From NCBI GenBank assembly GCA_964016885.1, contig OZ024742.1, positions 303,242,001 through 303,306,000 on the forward strand: 64,000 nucleotides of DNA, read 5' to 3'. The notes under the pieces are model-generated. The model made no database searches. It had not been told where the DNA came from and saw only the letters and a list, made by a program, of their open reading frames with translations. The position numbers were made by a program, and so were the translations under genes. This document shows, piece by piece, positions 1,348-59,871 of this stretch (its first letter is position 1; the number at the start of each line of letters is the position of its first letter). The DNA comes from Eledone cirrhosa (taxonomy: Eukaryota).

Positions 1348-2051
1348 TGAAAAATAGAGGGAGAAACGGGACTGTCCATCATCAGTGATCTTCTGACTAT
1401 CATCGATATTTCTTCGCATTAAAGACCAGATACCTCAAAATCAGTGCGGGCAATAACTAAAATAAGTTATTGGGACAAAACGAATTGGGTGGAGAAAGAG
1501 GGACAGTAAACAAACAAAAGTAGTAATGCAATGTAAAGAGAGGAAATGAGTTCGACCAAATCAACGACGAGAAGACGGCAGACGCGTCCGAAACCTGCGA
1601 AATGTGAGCAAGAAAAGGATTTCACACAGGTCAGACGGGGTGAAGTGAGAGAGGAGGAGCACTCACTCTCTGCTGCACCCCCTGTCTAACTTCCTCCCGT
1701 CTGACCTGTGTGAAATCCTTTTCTTATTCACATTTCGCAGGGATCGGACGCGTCTGCCGTCTTCTCGTCGTTCATTTGGTCCAACTCATGTTCACACGTA
1801 TCATTGACTTGTCTCTCATTTTCTCTCTTTACGTTGTATTACTACTTTTGTTTGTTTATTGTCCCTCTTTCTCCACCCAATTCACTTTGTCCCAATAACT
1901 TATTTTAGTTATAGCTCGCACTGATTTTGAGGTATCTGGTCTTTAATGCGAAGAAATATCGATGATAGTCAGAAGATCACTGATGATGGACAGTCCCGTT
2001 TCTCGCTCTATTTTTCATTCATATATATCAGACTCGCAACAACGCAGCACG

Positions 2052-17995: not shown

Positions 17996-18132
17996 TATGT
18001 TTCCGAATGAAACAGTTCTAGTCCTGTAGAAGCCATTTCTATATTAAATATTTATACTCTGCTATGTATTGAGTATCTTATTTACTGTGGTTACCCCCGA
18101 TTGAACCCGGGATAAATTTATATATATATATA

Positions 18133-18792
18133 TATTATATTTTGAGAATAAACTCTCAGTCATTTACAATAATTAAGCTCCAGGAAGGGTCTCTTCCGAG
18201 CAGTTAATACATTTAAAGTTTACGATAAACACGAAATGTGTTTACATTGCAACAGACAAAGTTAGCTATTAATGAAATAAACTAATAAAAGTGAATACAA
18301 TTTGTCTGTCTCGATATAAGTCAATAAAGACAATATTGTATTGGCAACAGCCATGATTCCTGGACATATTTAAATTTCAAAATTCAAACCTGTTCTGTAG
18401 ACGAATTTGAACCTCGAAACCCAAATAAGTTTCGCAACGGTGGAATGTGAATTGAAAAATAAAGAGAATCGAAATGGGATAGAAATAAAAGAGTGAAATA
18501 CCCATATCTTCTGTGCTTATCAACAGGAATCCAGTAAGATTAGTATATCACACATCAAAAATTTTGCAAGACTGACTACACGTGGGTAGGCAGGCCAGAA
18601 CTAGCTATCCCACATTCACGGTGCTAGAAATAACAGCCGCTTATGCAGGATTAAGGATCAGCTCATACAATAAAGGAGCAATACATTATATTATATTTTG
18701 AGAATAAACTCTCAGTCATTTACAATAATTAAGCTCCAGGAAGGGTCTCTTCCGAGCAGTTAATACATTTAAAGTTTACGATAAACACGAAA
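18133..18792 (-). mobile_element. 556-bp retrozyme-like repeat, about 1.2 monomers
   Basis: Terminal direct repeat with 556-bp period; reverse complement of 20160-20935 but differently permuted; 3' end runs into (TA)n. Confidence 0.8.
18355..18531 (-). ncRNA. Extended type I hammerhead, U3-A8 core variant
   Basis: Reverse complement of 20611-20787. Confidence 0.75.
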
Positions 18793-19120
18793 CTCGGGAC
18801 TCACAAAAGAACCCAGCCCACCCTATAGTGGTCATGTAGGCGTCATGACAAAAGTGAGCATCCAGTCCACACTGTAAAGTGGTCGTGTAGATGCCACAAC
18901 AAAAAGCACCCAGTCCATGTTGTAAAGTGGTCGTGTAGGCAACATGGCAAAAAGCACTGTAAATGTGGTTGCCACCAGGAAGGGCATTCAGCCATAGAAA
19001 CCAAACCAAAACTAGTTCTGTATGAGCAAATCATGGTCCTCCAACCTGATCCCTCACAAAAAGGACAGCCTGTCCTACCCATGCTAGCGTGGAAGATGGA
19101 TGTTAAACGATCATGATGAT
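18793..19120 (+). mobile_element. SINE 3' part with internal ~40-bp tandem repeats and RTE-like tail
   Basis: Repeats of cagtccacactgtaaagtggtcgtgtag..aaaagca; aggaagggcattcagcc; tail cccatgctagcgtggaagatggatgttaaacgatcatgatga. Confidence 0.55.
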
Positions 19121-19335
19121 ACACACACATATATATGTATATATCTTTTTTTGTTAATGGAATAATTATATTGTGTTGTTTATAATGTAATTGAATAGCT
19201 CTGTACTATACATAGACCACTCCTCTTTCCTTTACCTTTTCTATGGAAATACTCAACACATATATATATATATATATTTTTTTTTTTCTAATTCCAACCC
19301 GTCCGTCCCCTCAATCTATTTTAATTCTCATTCTT

Positions 19336-19371
19336 TCTTCTGATGAAGGACTAGGATCCGAAACGTTAAGA
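19336..19371 (+). ncRNA. Minimal type I hammerhead (PLE-type, dimer-dependent)
   Basis: tctt-CTGATGA-a-GGA-ctagga-TCC-GAAA-CG-TT-aaga. Confidence 0.7.
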
Positions 19372-19477
19372 CCCTCTTCCTGCTATATCAAGCGTTAACC
19401 TAATATATCCCTTCTCACTTTCATATAGATTATATATTTAAAAAAAAAATCCACTGTCAATAAATACACCAGGATTT

Positions 19478-19537
19478 TTTCATTCTGATGACTGAAGCAA
19501 ATTTTGTTTGCTTTCAATAAACCACTGGTAAATGAAA
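19478..19537 (+). ncRNA. Hammerhead family C, mutated copy (G12>T)
   Basis: tttcatt-CTGATGA..TAAA-CCACTGG-TA-aatgaaa; homologous to 36153-36213 and 40965-41025. Confidence 0.6.
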
Positions 19538-19799
19538 TAATTATCTTATGTTGTTTATTACATAACTATATATATATATATATATTGAAATAGAAATAGA
19601 AGGCTTCGTTGAACATTTGACTAAATATAATAGTCTAATGGTGGGGCGTATAAACCCACTGAACGGAAAAAGATGGGTATCAGCACACATGGGAGTCAAA
19701 CCCACAGCACTCGTTTGCTGGATGAGTAGACTGCCATATATTTTTTCTATTATTGTAGGGAAAAACGGACATAAAATGATGATGATGATATATATAATA

Positions 19800-19960
19800 G
19801 GTAGCGAATTGGCAAAGTCATTAAGATATCGGATAGAATGCTTTACAGTATTCGTCCCACCTCAGTGTGCGCTTTGAGTTCAAATCCCACCGTGGTCAAC
19901 TTTACCTTTCATCCTTTCGAGGTTGATAAAAAAAAGTACCAGTCCGTTAATAGGGTCGAT
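19800..19960 (+). mobile_element. tRNA-derived SINE
   Basis: gagttcaaatcc B-box; acctttcatcctttcgaggttgataaaa..gtaccag. Confidence 0.7.
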
Positions 19961-20159
19961 TTATTATTTTTTTTTTTTTCTTTTTTCCCCTCTATAAAAA
20001 ATATCGGTTGTGTTCAGACCTGGAGAGGGTTGGACTCTGCCAGGTTTAAAAGTGCCCTAGACACACTGTATCATGATGCCTCTACGACTCCACAAGAAAT
20101 TATGGGATATTTATCCTTTTATCTTTATATACAGTATATCGAATAATAAAAAGCAAAGC

Positions 20160-20929
20160 ATTTGGGTTTCGAGGTTCAAATTCGTCTACAGAACAGGTTT
20201 GAATTTTGAAATTTAAATATGTCCAGGAATCATGGCTGTTGCCAATACAATATTGTCTTTATTGACTTATATCGAGACAGACAAATTGTATTCACTTTTA
20301 TTAGTTTATTTCATTAATAGCTAACTTTGTCTGTTGCAATGTAAACACATTTCGTGTTTATCGTAAACTTTAAATGTATTAACTGCTCGGAAGAGACCCT
20401 TCCTGGAGCTTAATTATTGTAAATGACTGAGAGTTTATTCTCAAAATATAATATAATGTATTGCTCCTTTATTGTATGAGCTGATCCTTAATCCTGCATA
20501 AGCGGCTGTTATTTCTAGCACCGTGAATGTGGGATAGCTAGTTCTGGCCTGCCTACCCACGTGTAGTCAGTCTTGCAAAATTTTTGATGTGTGATATACT
20601 AATCTTACTGGATTCCTGTTGATAAGCACAGAAGATATGGGTATTTCACTCTTTTATTTCTATCCCATTTCGATTCTCTTTATTTTTCAATTCACATTCC
20701 ACCGTTGCGAAACTTATTTGGGTTTCGAGGTTCAAATTCGTCTACAGAACAGGTTTGAATTTTGAAATTTAAATATGTCCAGGAATCATGGCTGTTGCCA
20801 ATACAATATTGTCTTTATTGACTTATATCGAGACAGACAAATTGTATTCACTTTTATTAGTTTATTTCATTAATAGCTAACTTTGTCTGTTGCAATGTAA
20901 ACACATTTCGTGTTTATCGTAAACTTTAA

Positions 20930-20935
<6 letters not shown>
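20160..20935 (+). mobile_element. 556-bp retrozyme-like tandem repeat, about 1.4 monomers
   Basis: 20161 and 20717 start identical sequence (period 556). Non-coding, one hammerhead per unit, 3' end into (TA)n. Confidence 0.8.
20611..20787 (+). ncRNA. Extended type I hammerhead, U3-A8 core variant
   Basis: gattcctg-TTGATAA-GCA..TGC-GAAA-C-(24-bp helix with 8 G.U)-G-TC-caggaatc; stem I is 8 perfect bp. Confidence 0.78.
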
Positions 20936-29294: not shown

Positions 29295-29440
<146 letters not shown>

Positions 29441-29480
29441 GATATTAAATAAATGGAAACTATATTTATAAAACCATATT

Positions 29481-29546
29481 TATTTCATTATATATATTTC
29501 AGGGATATCATATTAACAATATGTTATGCCTTCCTCAGACAAAATA
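29481..29546 (-). ncRNA. Type I hammerhead (family E), inverted pLTR copy
   Basis: Reverse complement of 32345-32410. Confidence 0.72.
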
Positions 29547-29797
29547 CAATATAGACAGTTTTATAGATAAATAGATTTGACATACCGTTCAACATCGACT
29601 TGTATTTGTAAAAGTTGATTTGGCAGTGAAAAATTGTAAACAGAAAGAAAGAAAGAGAGAAAGAAGGAAAGAAAGAAAACGAAGAAAAAGAACAAAAAGA
29701 AGAAATGCATGCAACAAAATACATGCAACAAAATAGAGAGATGGAAAGATAGATAAAGAGAAGAACTTCATGTAAAGAAACAGAGAGAGATATATAT

Positions 29798-30948
29798 ATG
29801 CTTTTACTTATTGATAATAATAACTCTGAACTAAATAGAAAAAGAAAACAAATTACACAATTTTTTAATTACTTTAATCTAAAAATAGAAATTGAGAACA
29901 ACCATAGAATAGTCAATTTCCTAGATATAACATTAAATCTCAACACATGTCTTCACTATCCTTTTCACAAGTTGAATGAAAACTTAAACAATGTCAGCTT
30001 TAACTCTAACCACCCCAGATCTGTCAAAAACACTATAGTAAACTCTGTTCAAAAACGTATCTCTAGAATCTCGTCTAATAGAAAGATTTTCGACGAAAAA
30101 GCCCAGTACTACAATGAAGCGTTAGCTAGAGCAGGATATAGTGATAAGATTATGTACATAGATAATGATAGACAAACTAAACAAAATAACAACTATTTTA
30201 ATTACGGCCACAACCTTAGCAACTATAATAGAAAGCATTACAATAATTCCAAAAGCCAAAAAAGAAATAGAACTAGGAACATAATATGGTTTGCCCCCCC
30301 CCCTTTCTCACTAAACATTAAAACCCACATCGCTAAACTATTTTTTAAAGCTCTTGATAATCGCTTCCCTAGAACACATAGGTATCACTCAATTTTCAAT
30401 AGACATACTATAAAATTAACCTACTCATCCACCAAAATTTAGCACAAAATATTAATAGAATAAATAATAGGAACTTAAAACCTAGCGATAATAGCATAAA
30501 TAATATACAAGTTAACAAATGTAACTGTAGAGATAGATCTAAATGTTCGTTAAATAACAACTGCTTAGTTAAAAATATAATATACAACTGTATTGTTAAA
30601 ACGGACTCTAATTCTTTTAACTACGCCGGTTCCACATCGACGGAATTTAAACTTCGCTATAATAACCACAAGAATTCTTTCACAGATCCAAGCAAAAAAT
30701 CTTCAACAGCACTATCAGGCGTACTCTGGCAACTTAGGCAAGATAACGTTAGATATTCGACGGCTTGGAATATAGTCTCAAGAGGGATTCCTTTTAATTC
30801 ATCCTCTGAGACATGTGACCTCTGCGCGGAGGAGATATTCTTTGTACTAAAATCTAATAATTCCCTTAATCTACGGACAAATTTATTCAGTTGCTGCAAA
30901 CATAGATTGAACTCAACTTTTAAATATAAATTTAAATTTAAAATGTAG
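29798..30948 (+). pseudogene. PLE RT C-terminal half plus GIY-YIG endonuclease (frameshift near 30440)
   Basis: VNFLDITLNL..SNHP..RISRISS..IIWFAPPPFS..IFNRHTIKLTYS, then CNCRDRSKCSLNNNCLVKNIIYNC..YAGST..CDLC..CKH. Confidence 0.85.
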
Positions 30949-31422
30949 TATATTTAGTTTGATTTATAAGTATTTGGGAAACTAGCCGATAAATCTTTCG
31001 ATTTCTTCTTTTTATTCTTCTTTTTATTTTTATTTTTATTTAAACATTCTTCATGAAAAATTAAACTACCCTAAAAGTTGATGCTCCAAATATTTCGAAT
31101 AAACGTTACACTAGATAAACTTCTATATTAAATATAAGAACATATGTAGACCAAATGGGCATCCTAAACTTTTTGAAATGATTTCTGCTAGACGCGACTT
31201 GGTAAATAATTTTTAGCTTTATCTGTTTTCGACTCTGATGCTTATAATGAACTTGGCAATATATTGTCAATTAATTTTGAAGGGTTGATCTTTGTGGTCG
31301 ATTTGCGTGGCATATTATGTTTCTATTATGTTTTTATTTTTTTTATTTTAATATTTTTTAATATTTTTTATATTTTTATTTTTAATATGTAATATTTTTT
31401 AGTTTTCTATTTTATTTATTTG

Positions 31423-31424
<2 letters not shown>

Positions 31425-31497
<73 letters not shown>
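31425..31497. repeat. (ATT)n microsatellite
   Basis: Direct reading. Confidence 0.95.
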
Positions 31498-32344
31498 TTT
31501 GTTTTTGTTTCTGATATTTTTTATTAATATATTGAAATCTGTTCTCTATTTCTGCTTGATAGATAATCATGTAGAGTAAAGACAAGAATAGTATTGTTAA
31601 AATTAATATAGACTCTATATTACACATATATGTATACTTAAATTTTTATAGCACAATGAGAATGTTCTCCGTGTGAAATAGGGGTTTGCAGAGTTGATCA
31701 CGTAAATTCACATCGATGTTTGTAGTTATCATATAAACATATGAATTTTTAAAACTAGACATAAGATCATTACTTTTCACACATTATGGATACGTGTCTC
31801 ATTCAGGAATACTGATATTTACATTATAGTGCCTGGTTTTTATACGAACTAATATTTCTACATTAAAACATAGGGTTTTTAAATTCTGCCTCGCCTATGT
31901 CTGGTTACTTTTCATTTTTCTCTCTATATAACGGCTGGTTTCTTTCCTAACCACATATATCTCCCTTACATTAATACTAGAGCTAAATAAATAAATAAAT
32001 AAATAAATGTATCATTGATACGTTCATTCAACGGATGTTCAACTACCTACTTTTCTCTATATATATCTATCTCTATCTATTTCCTCTCTCTCTATATATA
32101 TCTCTCTCTGTTTCTTTACATGAAGTTCTTCTCTTTATCTATCTTTCCATCTCTCTATTTTGTTGCATGTATTTTGTTGCATGCATTTCTTCTTTTTCTT
32201 CTTTTTCTTCGTTTTCTTTCTTTCCTTCTTTCTCTCTTTCTTTCTTTCTGTTTACAATTTTTCACTGCCAAATCAACTTTTACAAATACAAGTCGATGTT
32301 GAACGGTATGTCAAATCTATTTAATAATAAAACTGTCTATATTG

Positions 32345-32410
32345 TATTTTGTCTGAGGAAGGCATAACATATTGTTAATATGATATCCCTGAAATATATA
32401 TAATGAAATA
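32345..32410 (+). ncRNA. Type I hammerhead (family E) in the H1 pLTR
   Basis: tattttgt-CTGAGGA-AGG..CCT-GAAA-TATATA-TA-atgaaata; stem II covaries with the 1084-1147 copy (AAG/CTT). Confidence 0.75.
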
Positions 32411-32537
32411 AATATGGTTTTATAAATATAGTTTCCATTTATTTAATATCGTAAATATACTCCAAATACTTGTTGAGTGCTTTTATATCAGTTATAAATA
32501 TTTACTAGTTGTAACCCAACAATTTAAATATAACTTT

Positions 32538-51447: not shown

Positions 51448-51776
<329 letters not shown>

Positions 51777-51932
51777 TTGTTATACTTTGGGAGGGTCATG
51801 TTGCCAATAAGAAACACACGCACCAGATGCTTTCACTTCAATTTAATTTATTAAATATTTATAAATTTACAAATTTATAAATTTCTGGTTGGTTGGTTGG
51901 TTCCACAACCAGATAGTTGTTTATATATATAT

Positions 51933-51977
51933 AGTCATAGTTCTTTCGTCACACACTCTGTGACCTCTTCAGTGACT
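51933..51977 (-). ncRNA. Type I hammerhead (PLE family A)
   Basis: agtca-CTGAAGA-g-GTCACA-gagtg-TGTGAC-GAAA-GAAC-TA-tgact. Confidence 0.72.
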
Positions 51978-52282
51978 GGGGATTTCGTTCTTCGTTTCTG
52001 TGTCTTTCCTTTCTTCTATCCTACGCCATTTTGTTTGTGTGTGGGTTGCGTGCTCAGTTTGCGCATGCGCCACATCCGGGTGTCTGTGTGTGTTTGTGTT
52101 CATTTTTCTATTTATCTATTTATATTTTTCTATTTGTTTGTTTATTTATTTATTTATTGTTGGTTGGTTGTTTGTTCTATGTGTGTGTGTGTTTTCATTT
52201 TGTCTTGTGTGTGTTTTCATTTTGTGTGTGTTTTCGATTGTAAGTTGTTTGTTCTATGTGTGTGTGTGTTTTCATTTTGTCC

Positions 52283-54506
52283 TTAATTGTAAGTTGTGAT
52301 GTTGCTGTTCCACTCATATTTTCTATTTAATTTTGGTTTTAATTCTTTTATGCTTACTGCCTCTGTAATTTGCCTAAACATTGCGTCTTTCTTGTGTGTG
52401 GATTCTATTTTTATTTCTACGCTCTCTAATTTACCCCTGTGTTCTATCTTAGCATGTTGGTAGAGCACAGATGATTCTTTACTATCTTGGAGGTCTCGCC
52501 AGTGTTCATTTATTCGTTCCCCTATACTACGAGCTGTCTCACCTATGTACACTACATTTTTGTTTCTACATTGTCCCTCAGTACATCTTATGCTATATAC
52601 TACATTTCTAGTTTTACAGTTAATATGGGGGCTTATTTTACAGGTTATACATTTCTTATCTATACATGAGGGTCTTTGGAACGGGTATGTCTTGCTAATA
52701 AGTGTTTTTACGGAGGTACCAGGTCTTTCTACTATCTTAATATTGAGATTATGTTTCTTTAGGGCCCTTCTAAATTTGTAGGCTAGTTCGCCTCTAGGGG
52801 TTGTATTGATGAACATTACACTCTGGTATTTATTGCTATCATACCATGAGTTTATTCTATTGGCCTTGTTCTTAGTTCTTTCTATTCTATTCCAAAATTT
52901 GCTCCTATACAAGGGGCAGGTCCCATTTATGTCATTATTTACCATTTTTTCCCAGTTGGTTCTGGCTCCTTTATACACTCTGATTCTATCTCTCTGATTG
53001 TAGCCAGAGAACTGCATACGGTGGATGAAGTGTTGTATGTGTCTCTCTAGTTCTTCGGGGTTGCACATGCGGGACACATTTCTCATCACCCGTACCAAAT
53101 CCGCAATCAGTATGTTGATTTTGGTATGGTCCGAAATGGCCGAGTTTCGGTGGATCAGATGTTTGGAAGTCATGGGTTTGGCATAATGGGAATGGAGGAT
53201 TTGTTTTTGGTTGTTAATAGTATCTAACCAGAGCTCTGTGTCTAGTACAGGTAATCGATGGTTGGGGTGTCTACTTGGGTAGTCTATAGTAACTCTAATG
53301 CTCTGGTGGATGGAGTTTGCTATTTGCTGGATGCTTTCCATTGTGTTTTTCTCTAGTTCCTGACTGTTCTTTAGTGGGGGTGTCTTAACTACGATGTTTA
53401 TATCATCTACGTAGCGGGAGTACATTATCAGGGTTAAGCTGTCTTCTAATTGTTCATTAAGTTTTTGTTTAAGTCTACTGTCCCACCATACCATGAATAA
53501 GTTAGCTATGTCGCCTGCAATGCTAACACCAATGGCTGCTCCTTCCTCTTGGGCATATGTTTTACCATTAAATTTGAACATATGTTCCTTAAGGGTTAGT
53601 TTTATGCTGGCCCCTACCGCATGTGCAATCATTTTCTTCAGTTCATCGTGGTTTTCGGGTGTCCGTATGGCTCTGGTCCACCCGTTCCATCTATCTGTGT
53701 GGGTTTTCTTGGCCATTGAGGTAATGGTAGGTGGTCTGCCTCTTGCTGGTCTTGTAGGGCACAGGTTGCTAAGGTCATAAGTGTCTAGGTAACTATTACT
53801 ATGGGTAAGCTTAAGTAGAAGTCCCAGCTCACTGGTATCAATCCCACGGAACTCAACCTTGCTCTCGCTGATCATTTCGACGCATTTCTCTACAGCAAAA
53901 TCCACGTCAATAGATGGATACAGGGACACAACATCCATACTGCCTATTATGCAGTTTGTTAGGTCCCCAGATCGGTTACCCGCGCCGATTCTGCTGAGGA
54001 GGTCCTCCGTGCTGTCACACACATCTGGGGACATCTCAATGATGGGGCGTATGATCAGGGAGAGGAAGTAGGACAGTCTGTAGTTACTAGCAATGTTAGC
54101 CCCACAGACTGGCCGTGTTGGTGGTCCCGCGACAGGGTCCCAGCCCGTTTTATGGTCTTTACGAAGCCCATACAACGCCGGCACGTCATTGTTCCAGGCC
54201 TGGAAGTTGTTGGCAGTCCTTTTGTTGGGCTGCATTATATTTGTCCACATCACCATATGGGCATTGAGGGTTTTTTCTCTATCCTCATGCTCCTGTGGTG
54301 TTACCTCTCTTATGTTAGTGATGTGGGGTTGCATTGCCTGGATGTAGTTTGGCAGGCTGTCAACCGACATTCTGCCAGACTTGTCTGTTGGAAAGCATGC
54401 TATCTCTCCATTACGCGAGCGCTGCATGAGCTTACGCAAGCCATTTGCAGATTCTTCTCCCAGTTGCTGGGCCTCTATTCTATTATGCTTCTTGCTATAC
54501 TGTTCT
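52283..54506 (-). CDS. PLE reverse transcriptase plus GIY-YIG endonuclease, open frame but N-terminally truncated
   Basis: PTDKSG, GSMDVVSLYPSI, QEEGAAIG..ANLFM, YSRYVDDI, LPVLD, Cys-rich linker, NVVYSIRC..YIGET..R..EH. The first ~83 aa of the 824-aa call are antisense read-through of the other arm. Confidence 0.9.
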
Positions 54507-55967
54507 AGAGGCAGACCACCTACCATTACCTCAATGGCCAAGAAAACCCACACAGATAGATGGAACGGGTGGACCAGAGCCATACGGACACCCGAAAACC
54601 ACGATGAACTGAAGAAAATGATTGCACATGCGGTAGGGGCCAGCATAAAACTAACCCTTAAGGAACATATGTTCAAATTTAATGGTAAAACATATGCCCA
54701 AGAGGAAGGAGCAGCCATTGGTGTTAGCATTGCAGGCGACATAGCTAACTTATTCATGGTATGGTGGGACAGTAGACTTAAACAAAAACTTAATGAACAA
54801 TTAGAAGACAGCTTAACCCTGATAATGTACTCCCGCTACGTAGATGATATAAACATCGTAGTTAAGACACCCCCACTAAAGAACAGTCAGGAACTAGAGA
54901 AAAACACAATGGAAAGCATCCAGCAAATAGCAAACTCCATCCACCAGAGCATTAGAGTTACTATAGACTACCCAAGTAGACACCCCAACCATCGATTACC
55001 TGTACTAGACACAGAGCTCTGGTTAGATACTATTAACAACCAAAAACAAATCCTCCATTCCCATTATGCCAAACCCATGACTTCCAAACATCTGATCCAC
55101 CGAAACTCGGCCATTTCGGACCATACCAAAATCAACATACTGATTGCGGATTTGGTACGGGTGATGAGAAATGTGTCCCGCATGTGCAACCCCGAAGAAC
55201 TAGAGAGACACATACAACACTTCATCCACCGTATGCAGTTCTCTGGCTACAATCAGAGAGATAGAATCAGAGTGTATAAAGGAGCCAGAACCAACTGGGA
55301 AAAAATGGTAAATAATGACATAAATGGGACCTGCCCCTTGTATAGGAGCAAATTTTGGAATAGAATAGAAAGAACTAAGAACAAGGCCAATAGAATAAAC
55401 TCATGGTATGATAGCAATAAATACCAGAGTGTAATGTTCATCAATACAACCCCTAGAGGCGAACTAGCCTACAAATTTAGAAGGGCCCTAAAGAAACATA
55501 ATCTCAATATTAAGATAGTAGAAAGACCTGGTACCTCCGTAAAAACACTTATTAGCAAGACATACCCGTTCCAAAGACCCTCATGTATAGATAAGAAATG
55601 TATAACCTGTAAAATAAGCCCCCATATTAACTGTAAAACTAGAAATGTAGTATATAGCATAAGATGTACTGAGGGACAATGTAGAAACAAAAATGTAGTG
55701 TACATAGGTGAGACAGCTCGTAGTATAGGGGAACGAATAAATGAACACTGGCGAGACCTCCAAGATAGTAAAGAATCATCTGTGCTCTACCAACATGCTA
55801 AGATAGAACACAGGGGTAAATTAGAGAGCGTAGAAATAAAAATAGAATCCACACACAAGAAAGACGCAATGTTTAGGCAAATTACAGAGGCAGTAAGCAT
55901 AAAAGAATTAAAACCAAAATTAAATAGAAAATATGAGTGGAACAGCAACATCACAACTTACAATTAA
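54507..55967 (+). CDS. Second, shorter inverted copy of the PLE RT (motifs B-C onward) plus GIY-YIG
   Basis: Protein identical to the minus copy from RGRPPTITS to the C-terminus. Confidence 0.85.
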   Translation, partial: RGRPPTITSMAKKTHTDRWNGWTRAIRTPENHDELKKMIAHAVGASIKLTLKEHMFKFNGKTYAQEEGAAIGVSIAGDIANLFMVWWDSRLKQKLNEQLEDSLTLIMYSRYVDDINIVVKTPPLKNSQELEKNTMESIQQIANSIHQSIRVTIDYPSRHPNHRLPVLDTELWLDTINNQKQILHSHYAKPMTSKHLIHRNSAISDHTKINILIADLVRVMRNVSRMCNPEELERHIQHFIHRMQFSGYNQRDRIRVYKGARTNWEKMVNNDINGTCPLYRSKFWNRIERTKNKANRINSWYDSNKYQSVMFINTTPRGELAYKFRRALKKHNLNIKIVERPGTSVKTLISKTYPFQRPSCIDKKCITCKISPHINCKTRNVVYSIRCTEGQCRNKNVVYIGETARSIGERINEHWRDLQDSKESSVLYQHAKIEHRGKLESVEIKIESTHKKDAMFRQITEAVSIKELKPKLNRKYEWNSNITTYN

Positions 55968-56170
55968 GGACAAAATGAAAACACACACACACATAGAACA
56001 AACAACTTACAATCGAAAACACACACAAAATGAAAACACACACAAGACAAAATGAAAACACACACACACATAGAACAAACAACCAACCAACAATAAATAA
56101 ATAAATAAACAAACAAATAGAAAAATATAAATAGATAAATAGAAAAATGAACACAAACACACACAGACAC

Positions 56171-56226
56171 CCGGATGTGGCGCATGCGCAAACTGAGCAC
56201 GCAACCCACACACAAACAAAATGGCG
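56171..56226 (+). promoter_or_regulatory. Candidate pLTR promoter cassette (ETS-like CCGGATGT, NRF1 GCGCATGCGCA, YY1 AAAATGGCG)
   Basis: Motif matches; the NRF1 and YY1 motifs are retained in divergent family B while the flanks differ. Confidence 0.45.
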
Positions 56227-56272
56227 TAGGATAGAAGAAAGGAAAGACACAGAAACGAAGAACGAAATCCCC

Positions 56273-56317
56273 AGTCACTGAAGAGGTCACAGAGTGTGTG
56301 ACGAAAGAACTATGACT
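56273..56317 (+). ncRNA. Type I hammerhead (PLE family A)
   Basis: Mirror of 51933-51977. Confidence 0.72.
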
Positions 56318-56549
56318 ATATATATATAAACAACTATCTGGTTGTGGAACCAACCAACCAACCAGAAATTTATAAATTTGTAAATTTATAAATATTTAAT
56401 AAATTAAATTGAAGTGAAAGCAACTGGTGCGTGTGTTTCTTATTGGCAACATGACCCTCCCAAAGTATAACAATATCGGTTTCAACACACGATTTCAGAT
56501 AAAGAATCTTGCTAAACAAATTCAGAAACGAAATATATATATATATATG

Positions 56550-57674: not shown

Positions 57675-57761
<87 letters not shown>

Positions 57762-57924
57762 GTTGAGAAGGTAACACACCAGAGAGAGATATATAGTGCG
57801 CTATCAATAATACAGGGAAAAAACCCACCAGTGTATGGAATCTATAACCTATGAAAGGCAGACTATAGACACGATAATTAAAAATATAAATTAAAGCGTA
57901 AATAAATACCTTTATAACTATATA

Positions 57925-58005
57925 ACACACGTACAAATCCAAAGATATGTTTCACCAAAAAATTTGTTGAAAGAAATGGTCTAGTCTCGGTTCATCAGCG
58001 TGTGT
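57925..58005 (-). ncRNA. Type I hammerhead, canonical core
   Basis: acacacg-CTGATGA-ACCGAGA..TTTTGGT-GAAA-CA-tATC..GATt-TG-TA-cgtgtgt. Confidence 0.85.
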
Positions 58006-58468
58006 AAGGCCATACATTTCAGACAACACTAAGAGAATTTTACAATTGACTGTCCAGCTACACGTGGGAGAGAGAGGTCACAGCGTGTTTAAGGGCAGTG
58101 AACCAGTGGCCTCTGAGAGACGAACTGCTAGAAAGGGCAGCCCCCCAAGCCACTCAGAGAAATGTGCTCAACCAAACAGAGATAGGAAAGACTGTTGTTA
58201 GGAGCGAAATATCACGATAAATTAACGGAGGTATAGGCCGTCGTTATTCCCTGTAAATAATGTGCTCAAAGGGGAAGAGATCCTGAGCCCTTTAAAATAT
58301 AATATGTTGAGAAGGTAACACTCCAGAGAGAGATATATAGTGCGTTATCAATAATACAGGGAAAAAAAACACCAGTGTATGGAATCTATAACCTATGAAA
58401 GGCAGACTATAGACACGATAATTAAAAATATAAATTAAAGCGTAAATAAATACCTTTATAACTATATA

Positions 58469-58549
58469 ACACACGTACAAATCCAAAGATATGTTTCACC
58501 AAAAAATTTGTTGAAAGAAATGGTCTAGTCTCGGTTCATCAGCGTGTGT
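58469..58549 (-). ncRNA. Type I hammerhead, canonical core (second monomer)
   Basis: Same as 57925-58005. Confidence 0.85.
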
Positions 58550-59185
58550 AAGGCCATACATTTCAGACAACACTAAGAGAATTTTACAATTGACTGTCCA
58601 GCTACACGCGGGAGAGTGAAGTCACAGCGTGTTTAAGGGCAGTGAACCAGTGGCCTCTGAGAGACGAACTGCTAGAAAGGGCAGCCCCCAAGCCACTCAG
58701 AGAAATGTGCTCAACCAAACAGGGATAGGAAAGACTGTTGTTAGGAGCGAAATATCACGATAACTTAACGGAGGCATAGGCCGTCGTTATTCCCTGTAAA
58801 TAATGTGCTCAACGGGGAAGAGATCCTGAGCCCTTTAAAATATAATATGTTGAGAAGGTAACACACCAGAGAGAGATATATAGTGCGTTATCAATAATAC
58901 AGGGAAAAAAACCACCAGTGTATGGAATCTATAACCTATGAAAGGCAGACTATAGACACGATAATTAAAAATATAAATTAAAGCGTAAATAAATACCTTT
59001 ATAACTATATAACACACGTACAAATCCAAATTTTTTCCCTGTATTATTGATAACGCACTATATATCTCTCTCTGGTGTGTTACCTTCTCAACATATTATA
59101 TTTTAAAGGGCTCAGGATCTCTTACCCTTTGAGCACATTATTTACAGGGAATAACGACGGCCTATGCCTCCGTTAATTTATCGTG

Positions 59186-59340: not shown

Positions 59341-59871
59341 TTTGCAACAACGCAGCACGCCATTTTATAATATATTTATATATTTTCCTCCGCTGTCTGT
59401 TTCTTTCTTACTGCTTCTCCATTCTCTGTATCTCTCACTTTCTTTTTACCCCCTCTGCCAGTCACTCTCAGTTAGCCTCTTCCTCACAGTTTCACTGACC
59501 CACTCTCTGCTACTCCCTCTCCATCACTTCCTCCCGTTTGACCTGTGCGAAATCATTTTCTCGCTCACATTTCAACCAGGTTTGATGGTCTTTATCTCTC
59601 GTCTACGATTTCACAGATCTTATGTTCTTCGATTTCAGGGAATTGACTCCTTCTTCCTCACTTATTGTTGCATTACCATCTTTGTTTGTTTACATGTCTC
59701 ACTCGTTCCCTCTATTTACGTGTCGCAACGACTTTGTTTAGCCGTTGTTCGCACCAACCAGAGGTATATGATCTTTAAAACGATGAAATACCAATGAAGG
59801 CTGGAAGATCATTGATGAAGGACTAATTTTATTTATATGTAACCCATTTGCAACCACGCAGCACGCCATTT
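59341..59871 (+). mobile_element. Family F non-coding element, 506-bp monomer with about 25-bp terminal redundancy
   Basis: tttgcaacMacgcagcacgccattt at 59341 and 59847; homologous to 1343-2060; TA flanks. Confidence 0.65.

Follow-up and report, generated by a model that had tools for sequence, protein, structure and literature searches.

The 64-kb window, that is, the whole stretch of DNA analysed, contains two insertions of a repeat that we refer to as family F, with three copies of a hammerhead-like motif and a second conserved stem-loop.

1337–2058, no strand: insertion 1, two 5′-truncated 3′ ends with a head-to-head joint near 1660, flanked by (TA)n runs
1372–1478, minus strand: third motif copy, in the inverted arm; predicted cut after 1429
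1698–1750, plus strand (59520–59588 in copy 2): second conserved stem-loop of family F; folding z −2.1 and −2.5, 43 of 56 positions identical between copies
1887–1993, plus strand: whole predicted ribozyme in the right arm of copy 1, with four-way junction and S-G-C core
59344–59871, plus strand: insertion 2, a 506-bp ORF-less unit with a 22-nt terminal repeat (59344–59365 and 59850–59871), flanked by (TA)n
59720–59825, plus strand: motif copy 2; predicted cut after 59768; U3 and mismatches in Pa and Pb

A sequence-only reading had described the host as a 506-bp, terminally redundant, TA-flanked fold-back element. Only copy 2 combines 506-bp spacing, a terminal repeat (21 of 22 positions identical) and (TA)n flanks, copy 1 being an inverted pair of 5′-truncated 3′ ends, and the fold-back character was unsupported, the folding of the monomer (z = −0.17) ruling out a rod-like structure. 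The (TA)n target, the inverted 5′-truncated copy and the tail at one end are insertion traits of Naiad and Penelope elements and are common to other Penelope groups. Inverted truncated copies and tails are known for Penelope-like elements (PMC8557442), as is internal priming with a tail (PMC11167929); the tail is 22 nt in family F versus 30–40 bp in the accessible text of PMC8557442. An ORF of the Naiad type (N-terminal GIY-YIG, CxC motif and C-terminal RT) was absent from the unit and from the window, where the Penelope ORFs place the endonuclease after the RT. Family depth peaks at 1689–1716, across subfamilies, over the second stem-loop, which is a candidate promoter or protein-binding signal.

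The window also contains many other Penelope pieces, which bear hammerheads of the ordinary type I. Some twenty hammerhead-like motifs of this C-G-S type lie in other repeat families, none at the Rfam gathering score.

Position and strand, first half of the list: 1091+, 9013−, 9582−, 11018+, 17277+, 19340+, 19485+, 28734−, 29095+, 29538−, 32353+
Position and strand, second half of the list: 32599+, 36160+, 40972+, 45416−, 47427−, 51972−, 56278+, 57998−, 58542−, 62539+, 63040−

The Penelope element at 51774–56476 has an 850-codon frame (52283–54835, minus strand) with weak RT and C-terminal GIY-YIG matches, and its 1970-nt perfect inverted duplication reflects either recent insertion or a fold-back created in assembly. 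Immediately upstream of copy 2, positions 57753–59139 hold a tandem repeat of about 544 bp with one minus-strand type I hammerhead per unit (57998 and 58542), which is a putative conventional retrozyme-like array. Near-perfect inverted repeats of 300–590 nt at 18131–20935 and 29432–32459 resemble inverted copies of Penelope insertions.

The S-G-C core and its copies

The three strands a, b and c reported by the sequence-only reading are present at 1931–1987 and 59763–59819, separated by linkers of 8 and 11 nt in both copies. In copy 1 they form three blocks on the plus strand, in the order site, GAAA and CUGA (S-G-C).

1931–1944: block S, with helix III arm (1931–1935, paired with 1956–1960), H17 (1936; cut predicted on its 3′ side from the numbering) and helix I arm (1937–1944, paired with 1972–1979)
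1947–1960: block G, with Pb 3′ arm, G12-A13-A14 (1953–1955) and helix III arm (1956–1960)
1972–1993: block C, with helix I arm (1972–1979), CUGAUGA (C3–A9, 1980–1986), variable base 1987 and Pa 3′ arm

Helix I is paired at 8 of 8 and helix III at 5 of 5 positions in both of these copies. The differences between them within the two helices are pairing-neutral (G.U to A-U and G.U to G-C), the 1952/1987 positions change from A-T (copy 1) to T-A (copy 2), and position 3 of copy 2 is U, all as had been described. Both copies are therefore real, but a further copy on the minus strand had been overlooked; its CUGAUGA starts from 1385 within the inverted arm of copy 1, and it again shows 8 of 8 pairs in helix I and 5 of 5 in helix III, so that all three copies are fully paired. 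The S-G-C block order is likewise common to the three. Copies 1 and 2 agree at ten of the 11 core positions checked, U3 in copy 2 being the sole exception. The core, consisting of CUGAnGA, GAAA, A15.1-U16.1 and a non-G H17, is complete in both arms of copy 1, and in copy 2 apart from U3; H17 is C or A across window copies and reads. Hammerhead numbering retains the predicted cut positions, 3′ of 1936 and of 59768. Copy 2 has probably decayed, and individual copies of this kind are probably dead. The absence of an ordinary hammerhead from family F also stands, since no match in C-G-S order or a circular permutation of it fell at 1980, 59812 or 1385 among the best 45 descriptor matches.

An S-G-C descriptor with helix I of at least 7 bp and helix III of at least 5 bp returned three sites in the window, all of them in family F, and none in 100 block-wise dinucleotide shuffles of the window; a looser form (at least 5 and at least 4 bp) returned 0.03 sites per shuffled window. 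A covariance model built from the three copies revealed no fourth one in the window, where the next-best match had an E of 0.75. Rfam gave no family at gathering score anywhere in the 64-kb window, and over 1340–2080 no hammerhead family at E ≤ 10, the only matches there being weak hairpins, none on the motif. The full structure pairs 89% of cells versus 30–53% for slid registers. Covariation over the three copies was not significant (43 of 500 shuffles match the score), and helices I and III show no two-sided change among them; with only three sequences and such a score, the window alone is insufficient proof of the fold. As a nested structure the motif folds no better than shuffles (z = 0.15 and −0.54). 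Between the arms of insertion 1 there are 2 differences over the 107 motif positions and 18 over 208 positions elsewhere (Fisher p = 0.026), a similarity that gene conversion could explain too.

Family data over 1661–2060 comprised 891 (X1) and 867 (X2) contigs from one sample and 2652 raw reads (X5). Summed depth at family F, which is not the same as copy number, reached up to about 48,000, far above the depth of 5–19 of single listed contigs, and family F is therefore a high-copy repeat. Among the 40 listed variants of 152, seven fall within 1931–1991 and none of them alters a core base. Four lie in the 11-nt linker, and the others are H17 C>A, 1987 T>A and 1959 T>C, which turns a G.U pair of helix III into G-C. 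Among the same 40 there is no variant at 1952, and 1913 A>T restores one Pc pair. The G>A substitution at 1889 is in the majority in X1, in X2 and in one of the read directions of X5, and it would cost one Pa pair unless the partner or the register shifts. A second host, from organism B, was considered and dropped, as one contig over 1881–1984 was too little to name one.

An upstream strand and a predicted four-way junction at the place of helix II

The sequence-only reading had given the motif an extent of 57 nt and a helix II consisting of a lone base pair, and neither was borne out. The motif spans about 107 nt, including an upstream strand (1887–1920) with which both arms expected to form helix II pair instead. 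Direct comparison of block G with block C yields at most 1 bp, with no C preceding GAAA. A helix II with a 3x3 loop between these blocks was dropped in favour of the upstream pairing, which consists of three helices on the plus strand.

1887–1892: Pa 5′ arm, partner 1988–1993, in the tail that follows CUGAUGA; both the descriptor and the centroid fold give 6 bp
1893–1914: Pc hairpin, 7 bp with an 8-nt loop; paired at 6 of 7, 7 of 7 and 6 of 7 positions in the three copies
1916–1920: Pb 5′ arm, partner 1947–1951 (the arm 5′ of GAAA), at the place of helix II; from pairing and centroid fold

The centroid fold of copy 1 yields exactly Pa, Pc and Pb, unprompted. Five of five tested Pa pairs form in each arm of copy 1 and three of five in copy 2; Pb is paired at 5/5, 4/5 and 3/5 positions in the three copies, the lowest count being that of copy 2. 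Copy 2, which also has U3, misses the junction descriptor. In copy 2, two pairs of Pc have changed on both sides. From copy 1 to copy 2, conservation extends four bases beyond 1987, to 1991, and then ends, and the depth of contigs and reads peaks over the block 1885–1912. The base just before G12 has no upstream-strand partner in any of the three window copies. A helix joining stems I and II, formed between the G-to-C linker and the 3′ tail, amounts to a 3-bp possibility that is broken in copy 2 and competes with Pa; the 11-nt G-to-C linker is the most variable segment of the motif. All helices close inside the 107 nt of one copy.

Published hammerheads and the 3′ ends of Naiad elements

The a-b-c order noted by the sequence-only reading is present, but the order itself has already been published and validated by cleavage as type SGC (PMC10085705). 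The accessible text of that work names six hammerhead block orders and reports in vitro cleavage of type SGC at the site predicted, with rates of 0.007–0.13 per min; according to the supplement, all of its data come from assembled metatranscriptomes. Cleavage of the published SGC RNAs (HRIMA-1, SGC variant; Eckert et al, 2023), whose linker from helix I to helix II is similarly short, takes place as single units are being transcribed (PMC10085705). Family F resembles type SGC in block order, core bases, crossing helices I and III and, by analogy, cut site, as well as in the shortness of the segment that leads from helix I to the arm before GAAA (7–8 nt to GAAA), and its helices I and III, of 8 and 5 bp, exceed the 4-bp minimum of the type. 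Published type SGC forms its helix II directly between blocks G and C, in contrast to family F, and has a further helix that connects stems I and II; unlike the metatranscriptome examples, the host of family F is a genomic repeat. The published search pattern specifies a G after CUGAUGA or CUGAUGAU, a C before GAAA and, beyond this closing pair, 2–6 bp of helix II (PMC10085705); because at most one pair forms between its G and C blocks, family F falls outside this pattern. The linker from helix I to Pb is 2 nt in family F and 1–6 nt in the Naiad cases described below, compared with typically 3 nt in published SGC (PMC10085705).

Short, non-coding, Penelope-dependent units with the core near the 3′ end also characterise non-LTR retrozymes and the minimal type I hammerheads of Penelope pseudo-LTRs (PMC4209133; bioRxiv 10.64898/2026.07.22.740005). 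Ribozyme type and the lack of tandem units aside, family F agrees with a non-autonomous element as understood in the bioRxiv preprint. The hammerheads of these systems are of type I (C-G-S), often with a helix III of 1–2 bp and in tandem arrays, whereas family F has the S-G-C order, a 5-bp helix III and single units or an inverted pair, with no tandem array in the window.

Naiads are said to lack canonical hammerheads, although some hold core words (PMC8557442; Craig et al, 2021). The accessible text flags these words as ‘HHR_core’ and ‘HHR_half_core’ only, and describes eight Naiad cases in which a second half-core lies on either side at 35–50 nt. We inspected File S5 of that paper (54 records, 584,131 characters) for permuted cores, pairings being judged by eye, without alignment or score. 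The word searches covered ctgatga at places 1–55 of 62, cgaaac at 1–30 of 81 and ctgaaga at 6–35 of 43, with words across line ends escaping them; parts 12, 19 and 25 were also inspected. Records were named by their own header (Plae, EuTe), by the header that follows, or by file order alone (Ppac, Parc, Hcon, Asuum and the spider record). On this basis 19 records hold a permuted core and seven are negative or unclear, the count covering 26 of the 54.

As judged by eye, the S-G-C core with the complete junction occurs in eight records from five lineages (coral, box jellyfish, acanthocephalan, clam shrimp and octopus), namely, Naiad_Plae, Naiad_EuTe, Naiad-2_Movir, Naiad_Amil, Anas, Aacu (with two mismatches), Obim and Ovul. 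Base pairs counted by eye in Pa/Pc/Pb/III/I are as follows.

Naiad_Plae: 5/8/6/6/6
Naiad_EuTe: 5/8/6/10/6
Naiad-2_Movir: 5/9/6/6/4
Naiad_Amil: 8/6/6/8/6
Naiad_Obim and Naiad_Ovul: 4/7-of-8/6/5/6

By the same visual inspection, H17 is invariably A or C in these cases, and the helix arm sequences are unrelated from lineage to lineage. Pa, Pc and Pb are contiguous in Plae, EuTe and Amil, with no unpaired base between them, Pa beginning directly after A9 and Pb stopping directly before G12. The bases adjoining A9 and G12 appear non-complementary in all six Naiad lineages compared, and in several cases a further helix extends helix III. Partial S-G-C motifs were discerned in Naiad_Bfor (helix I of 2 bp), Naiad_Esco (Pa and Pb hard to make out) and one spider record, whose periphery differs. 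All eight nematode Naiad consensuses show, by eye, a C-S-G hammerhead with full helices I–III near the 3′ end; publication of type CSG had rested on two sequences. We discerned no motif at the inspected ends of seven records, these being Dcar and Adux (both incomplete), Dst-4, Ppla, Scon, Skow-1 and Skow-2; the Skow-2 record has G at position 17. The 3′ ends of Naiad_Scon, Naiad-1_Skow and Naiad_Ppla display other hairpin-rich motifs, with no hammerhead discernible by eye.

The nearest Naiad ends to family F are those of Naiad_Obim and Naiad_Ovul, with, by eye, the same permuted core and junction about 70–80 nt before the (TA)n end. An 11-mer spanning the Pc loop of copy 1 has exactly two matches in the accessible File S5, both in the Pc hairpins of these octopus Naiads; three further family F words (one in two spellings) have no match in its Naiad records. 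Family F shares with Naiads the (TA)n target, the inverted truncated copy and the tail and, with the two octopus records, this 11-mer; it is unlike Naiads in its 506-bp length and lack of an ORF. Since the window holds no Naiad ORF, it is the ribozyme region and the pattern of insertion that connect the two, and family F is regarded as Naiad-related by its predicted ribozyme, not as a demonstrated Naiad member.

A pattern scan of metagenome contigs (60 of 64 parts) returned 119 loci, none of them a family F relative and none with an S-G-C site with helix I of at least 5 and helix III of at least 4 bp. Among viral contigs (29 of 64 parts, at least 120 loci) and prokaryotic genomes (31 of 64 parts, at least 120 loci), 0 of 240 loci combined helix I of at least 5 bp with a helix II or junction; these loci are the ones carrying core words, and scans of this extent say little on absence. 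One metagenome locus (L007:380–760) and nine related loci from two data sets were rejected as chance word matches within a transposase coding end, which we take to be the C-terminal coding end of a hAT-type transposase. The literature covered, mostly open papers, gave no report of a split helix II or of permuted hammerheads in Naiads or animal genomes; published SGC alignments lie outside this coverage and could include similar variants. In its accessible part, PMC13725137 merely cites the 2023 SGC paper.

Predicted ribozyme, rival readings and significance

A pseudoknotted, non-circularly permuted hammerhead, as the sequence-only reading had proposed, is upheld as the best reading of the motif. 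We consider it likely that family F is a Naiad-related, non-autonomous Penelope-like element whose 3′ end encodes a cis-cleaving hammerhead of type-SGC order. It also appears rather probable that many Naiads carry active non-circularly permuted hammerheads, comprising the S-G-C form with an upstream-strand four-way junction (coral, box jellyfish, acanthocephalan, clam shrimp, octopus and family F) and the nematode C-S-G form. The S-G-C order is already known; what is new here is the predicted replacement of helix II by a junction and the apparent occurrence in animal retroelements. From the 506-bp ORF-less unit and its Penelope-type ends, we infer that family F depends on Penelope machinery.

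Hammerhead catalysis uses G12 as the base and the 2′-OH of G8 as the acid. In the proposed structure, Pb would stack beneath the G12.A9 pair, the usual seat of helix II, and the 2-nt linker would tie Pb to the far end of helix I, while Pa and Pc would stack on each other as the other arm of the four-way junction. The standard core would then cut 3′ of H17 (1936). A cut about 100–120 nt before the 3′ end of the insertion could free unit-length RNA from read-through or multimeric transcripts, and a similar role has been proposed for the hammerheads of other Penelope pseudo-LTRs. A Penelope-type protein acting in trans may copy this RNA into (TA)n, starting inside the RNA; such an internal start would leave the 22-nt tail and the inverted truncated copy.

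The motif could alternatively be a hammerhead-derived but non-catalytic 3′ structure, kept as a binding signal for the Penelope protein or as a start signal for reverse transcription. For one Penelope element, the accessible text reports that hammerhead cleavage required protein, that insertion in vitro did not need the hammerhead, and that no RNA-seq reads ended at the cut site (PMC11167929). These observations fit such a role, as do U3 in copy 2 and the abundance of Naiads without canonical hammerheads (PMC8557442), but a binding site would not require the catalytic bases and the non-G H17, which by eye are retained in all complete cross-species cases inspected while all helix sequences have changed; we regard this alternative as unlikely. 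Still less probable is a ribozyme functional only between two RNA copies, that is, in a dimer or tandem transcript, with strands from both copies combined in a canonical order. Dimers are held to be the active form of the minimal type I hammerheads in animal Penelope elements because helix III is only 1–2 bp there (PMC4209133), and three mutually crossing helices may be hard to reach alone. Helix III of family F, however, has 5 bp and is non-palindromic, copy 2 stands alone as one unit, copy 1 has an antisense twin, and single-unit published SGC RNAs cleave during transcription (PMC10085705). Assembly between two monomers, as the sequence-only reading had contemplated, is not needed because every helix can form within one copy.

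A minimal 57-nt SGC hammerhead closed by the lone 1952–1987 pair, with the upstream helices incidental, would account for the A-T to T-A swap between copies 1 and 2 and for the unpartnered base 5′ of G12, and this pair may form within the junction in family F. As the whole explanation it is very improbable, given the conservation reaching 1991, the read depth peak over the upstream block, the two-sided changes in Pc, and the non-complementarity, by eye, of the equivalent two bases in six of six Naiad lineages compared; the occurrence of 1987 T>A with no change at 1952 points the same way but, among 40 of 152 variants, is not conclusive. Finally, we would give hardly any credence to chance complementarity in a conserved repeat, or to a K-turn or C-box motif. 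The window offers only two independent copies, without significant covariation, and several GAUGA-like words; against this stand the 0 of 100 shuffles and the same architecture, as seen by eye, in five other lineages. The C box consensus has a purine before UGAUGA. A pyrimidine precedes UGAUGA in family F, the G of the second GAUGA word is not constant, differing in copy 2 and among reads (1961 G>A), and no snoRNA family matched the motif, so that the K-turn or C-box alternative offered by the sequence-only reading found no support.

The preferred reading, that of a permuted hammerhead with a four-way junction, suggests an answer to why Naiads seemed to lack the hammerheads known from other Penelope-like elements: the order of their ribozymes would not be matched by standard descriptors. 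It would move non-circularly permuted hammerheads from metatranscriptome contigs into animal chromosomes, and would present a core whose A9 and G12 enter two different helices, an architecture barred by the published SGC search pattern. Because that pattern excludes the junction, ribozyme surveys, Rfam and repeat annotation would miss a class. The many natural variants would provide material for structural study of one catalytic core under different wiring. If many Naiads do carry active permuted hammerheads, the three-block hammerhead model would need a fourth block, and non-circular permutations would be common chromosomal ribozymes of invertebrates and not rarities of viroid-like RNAs.
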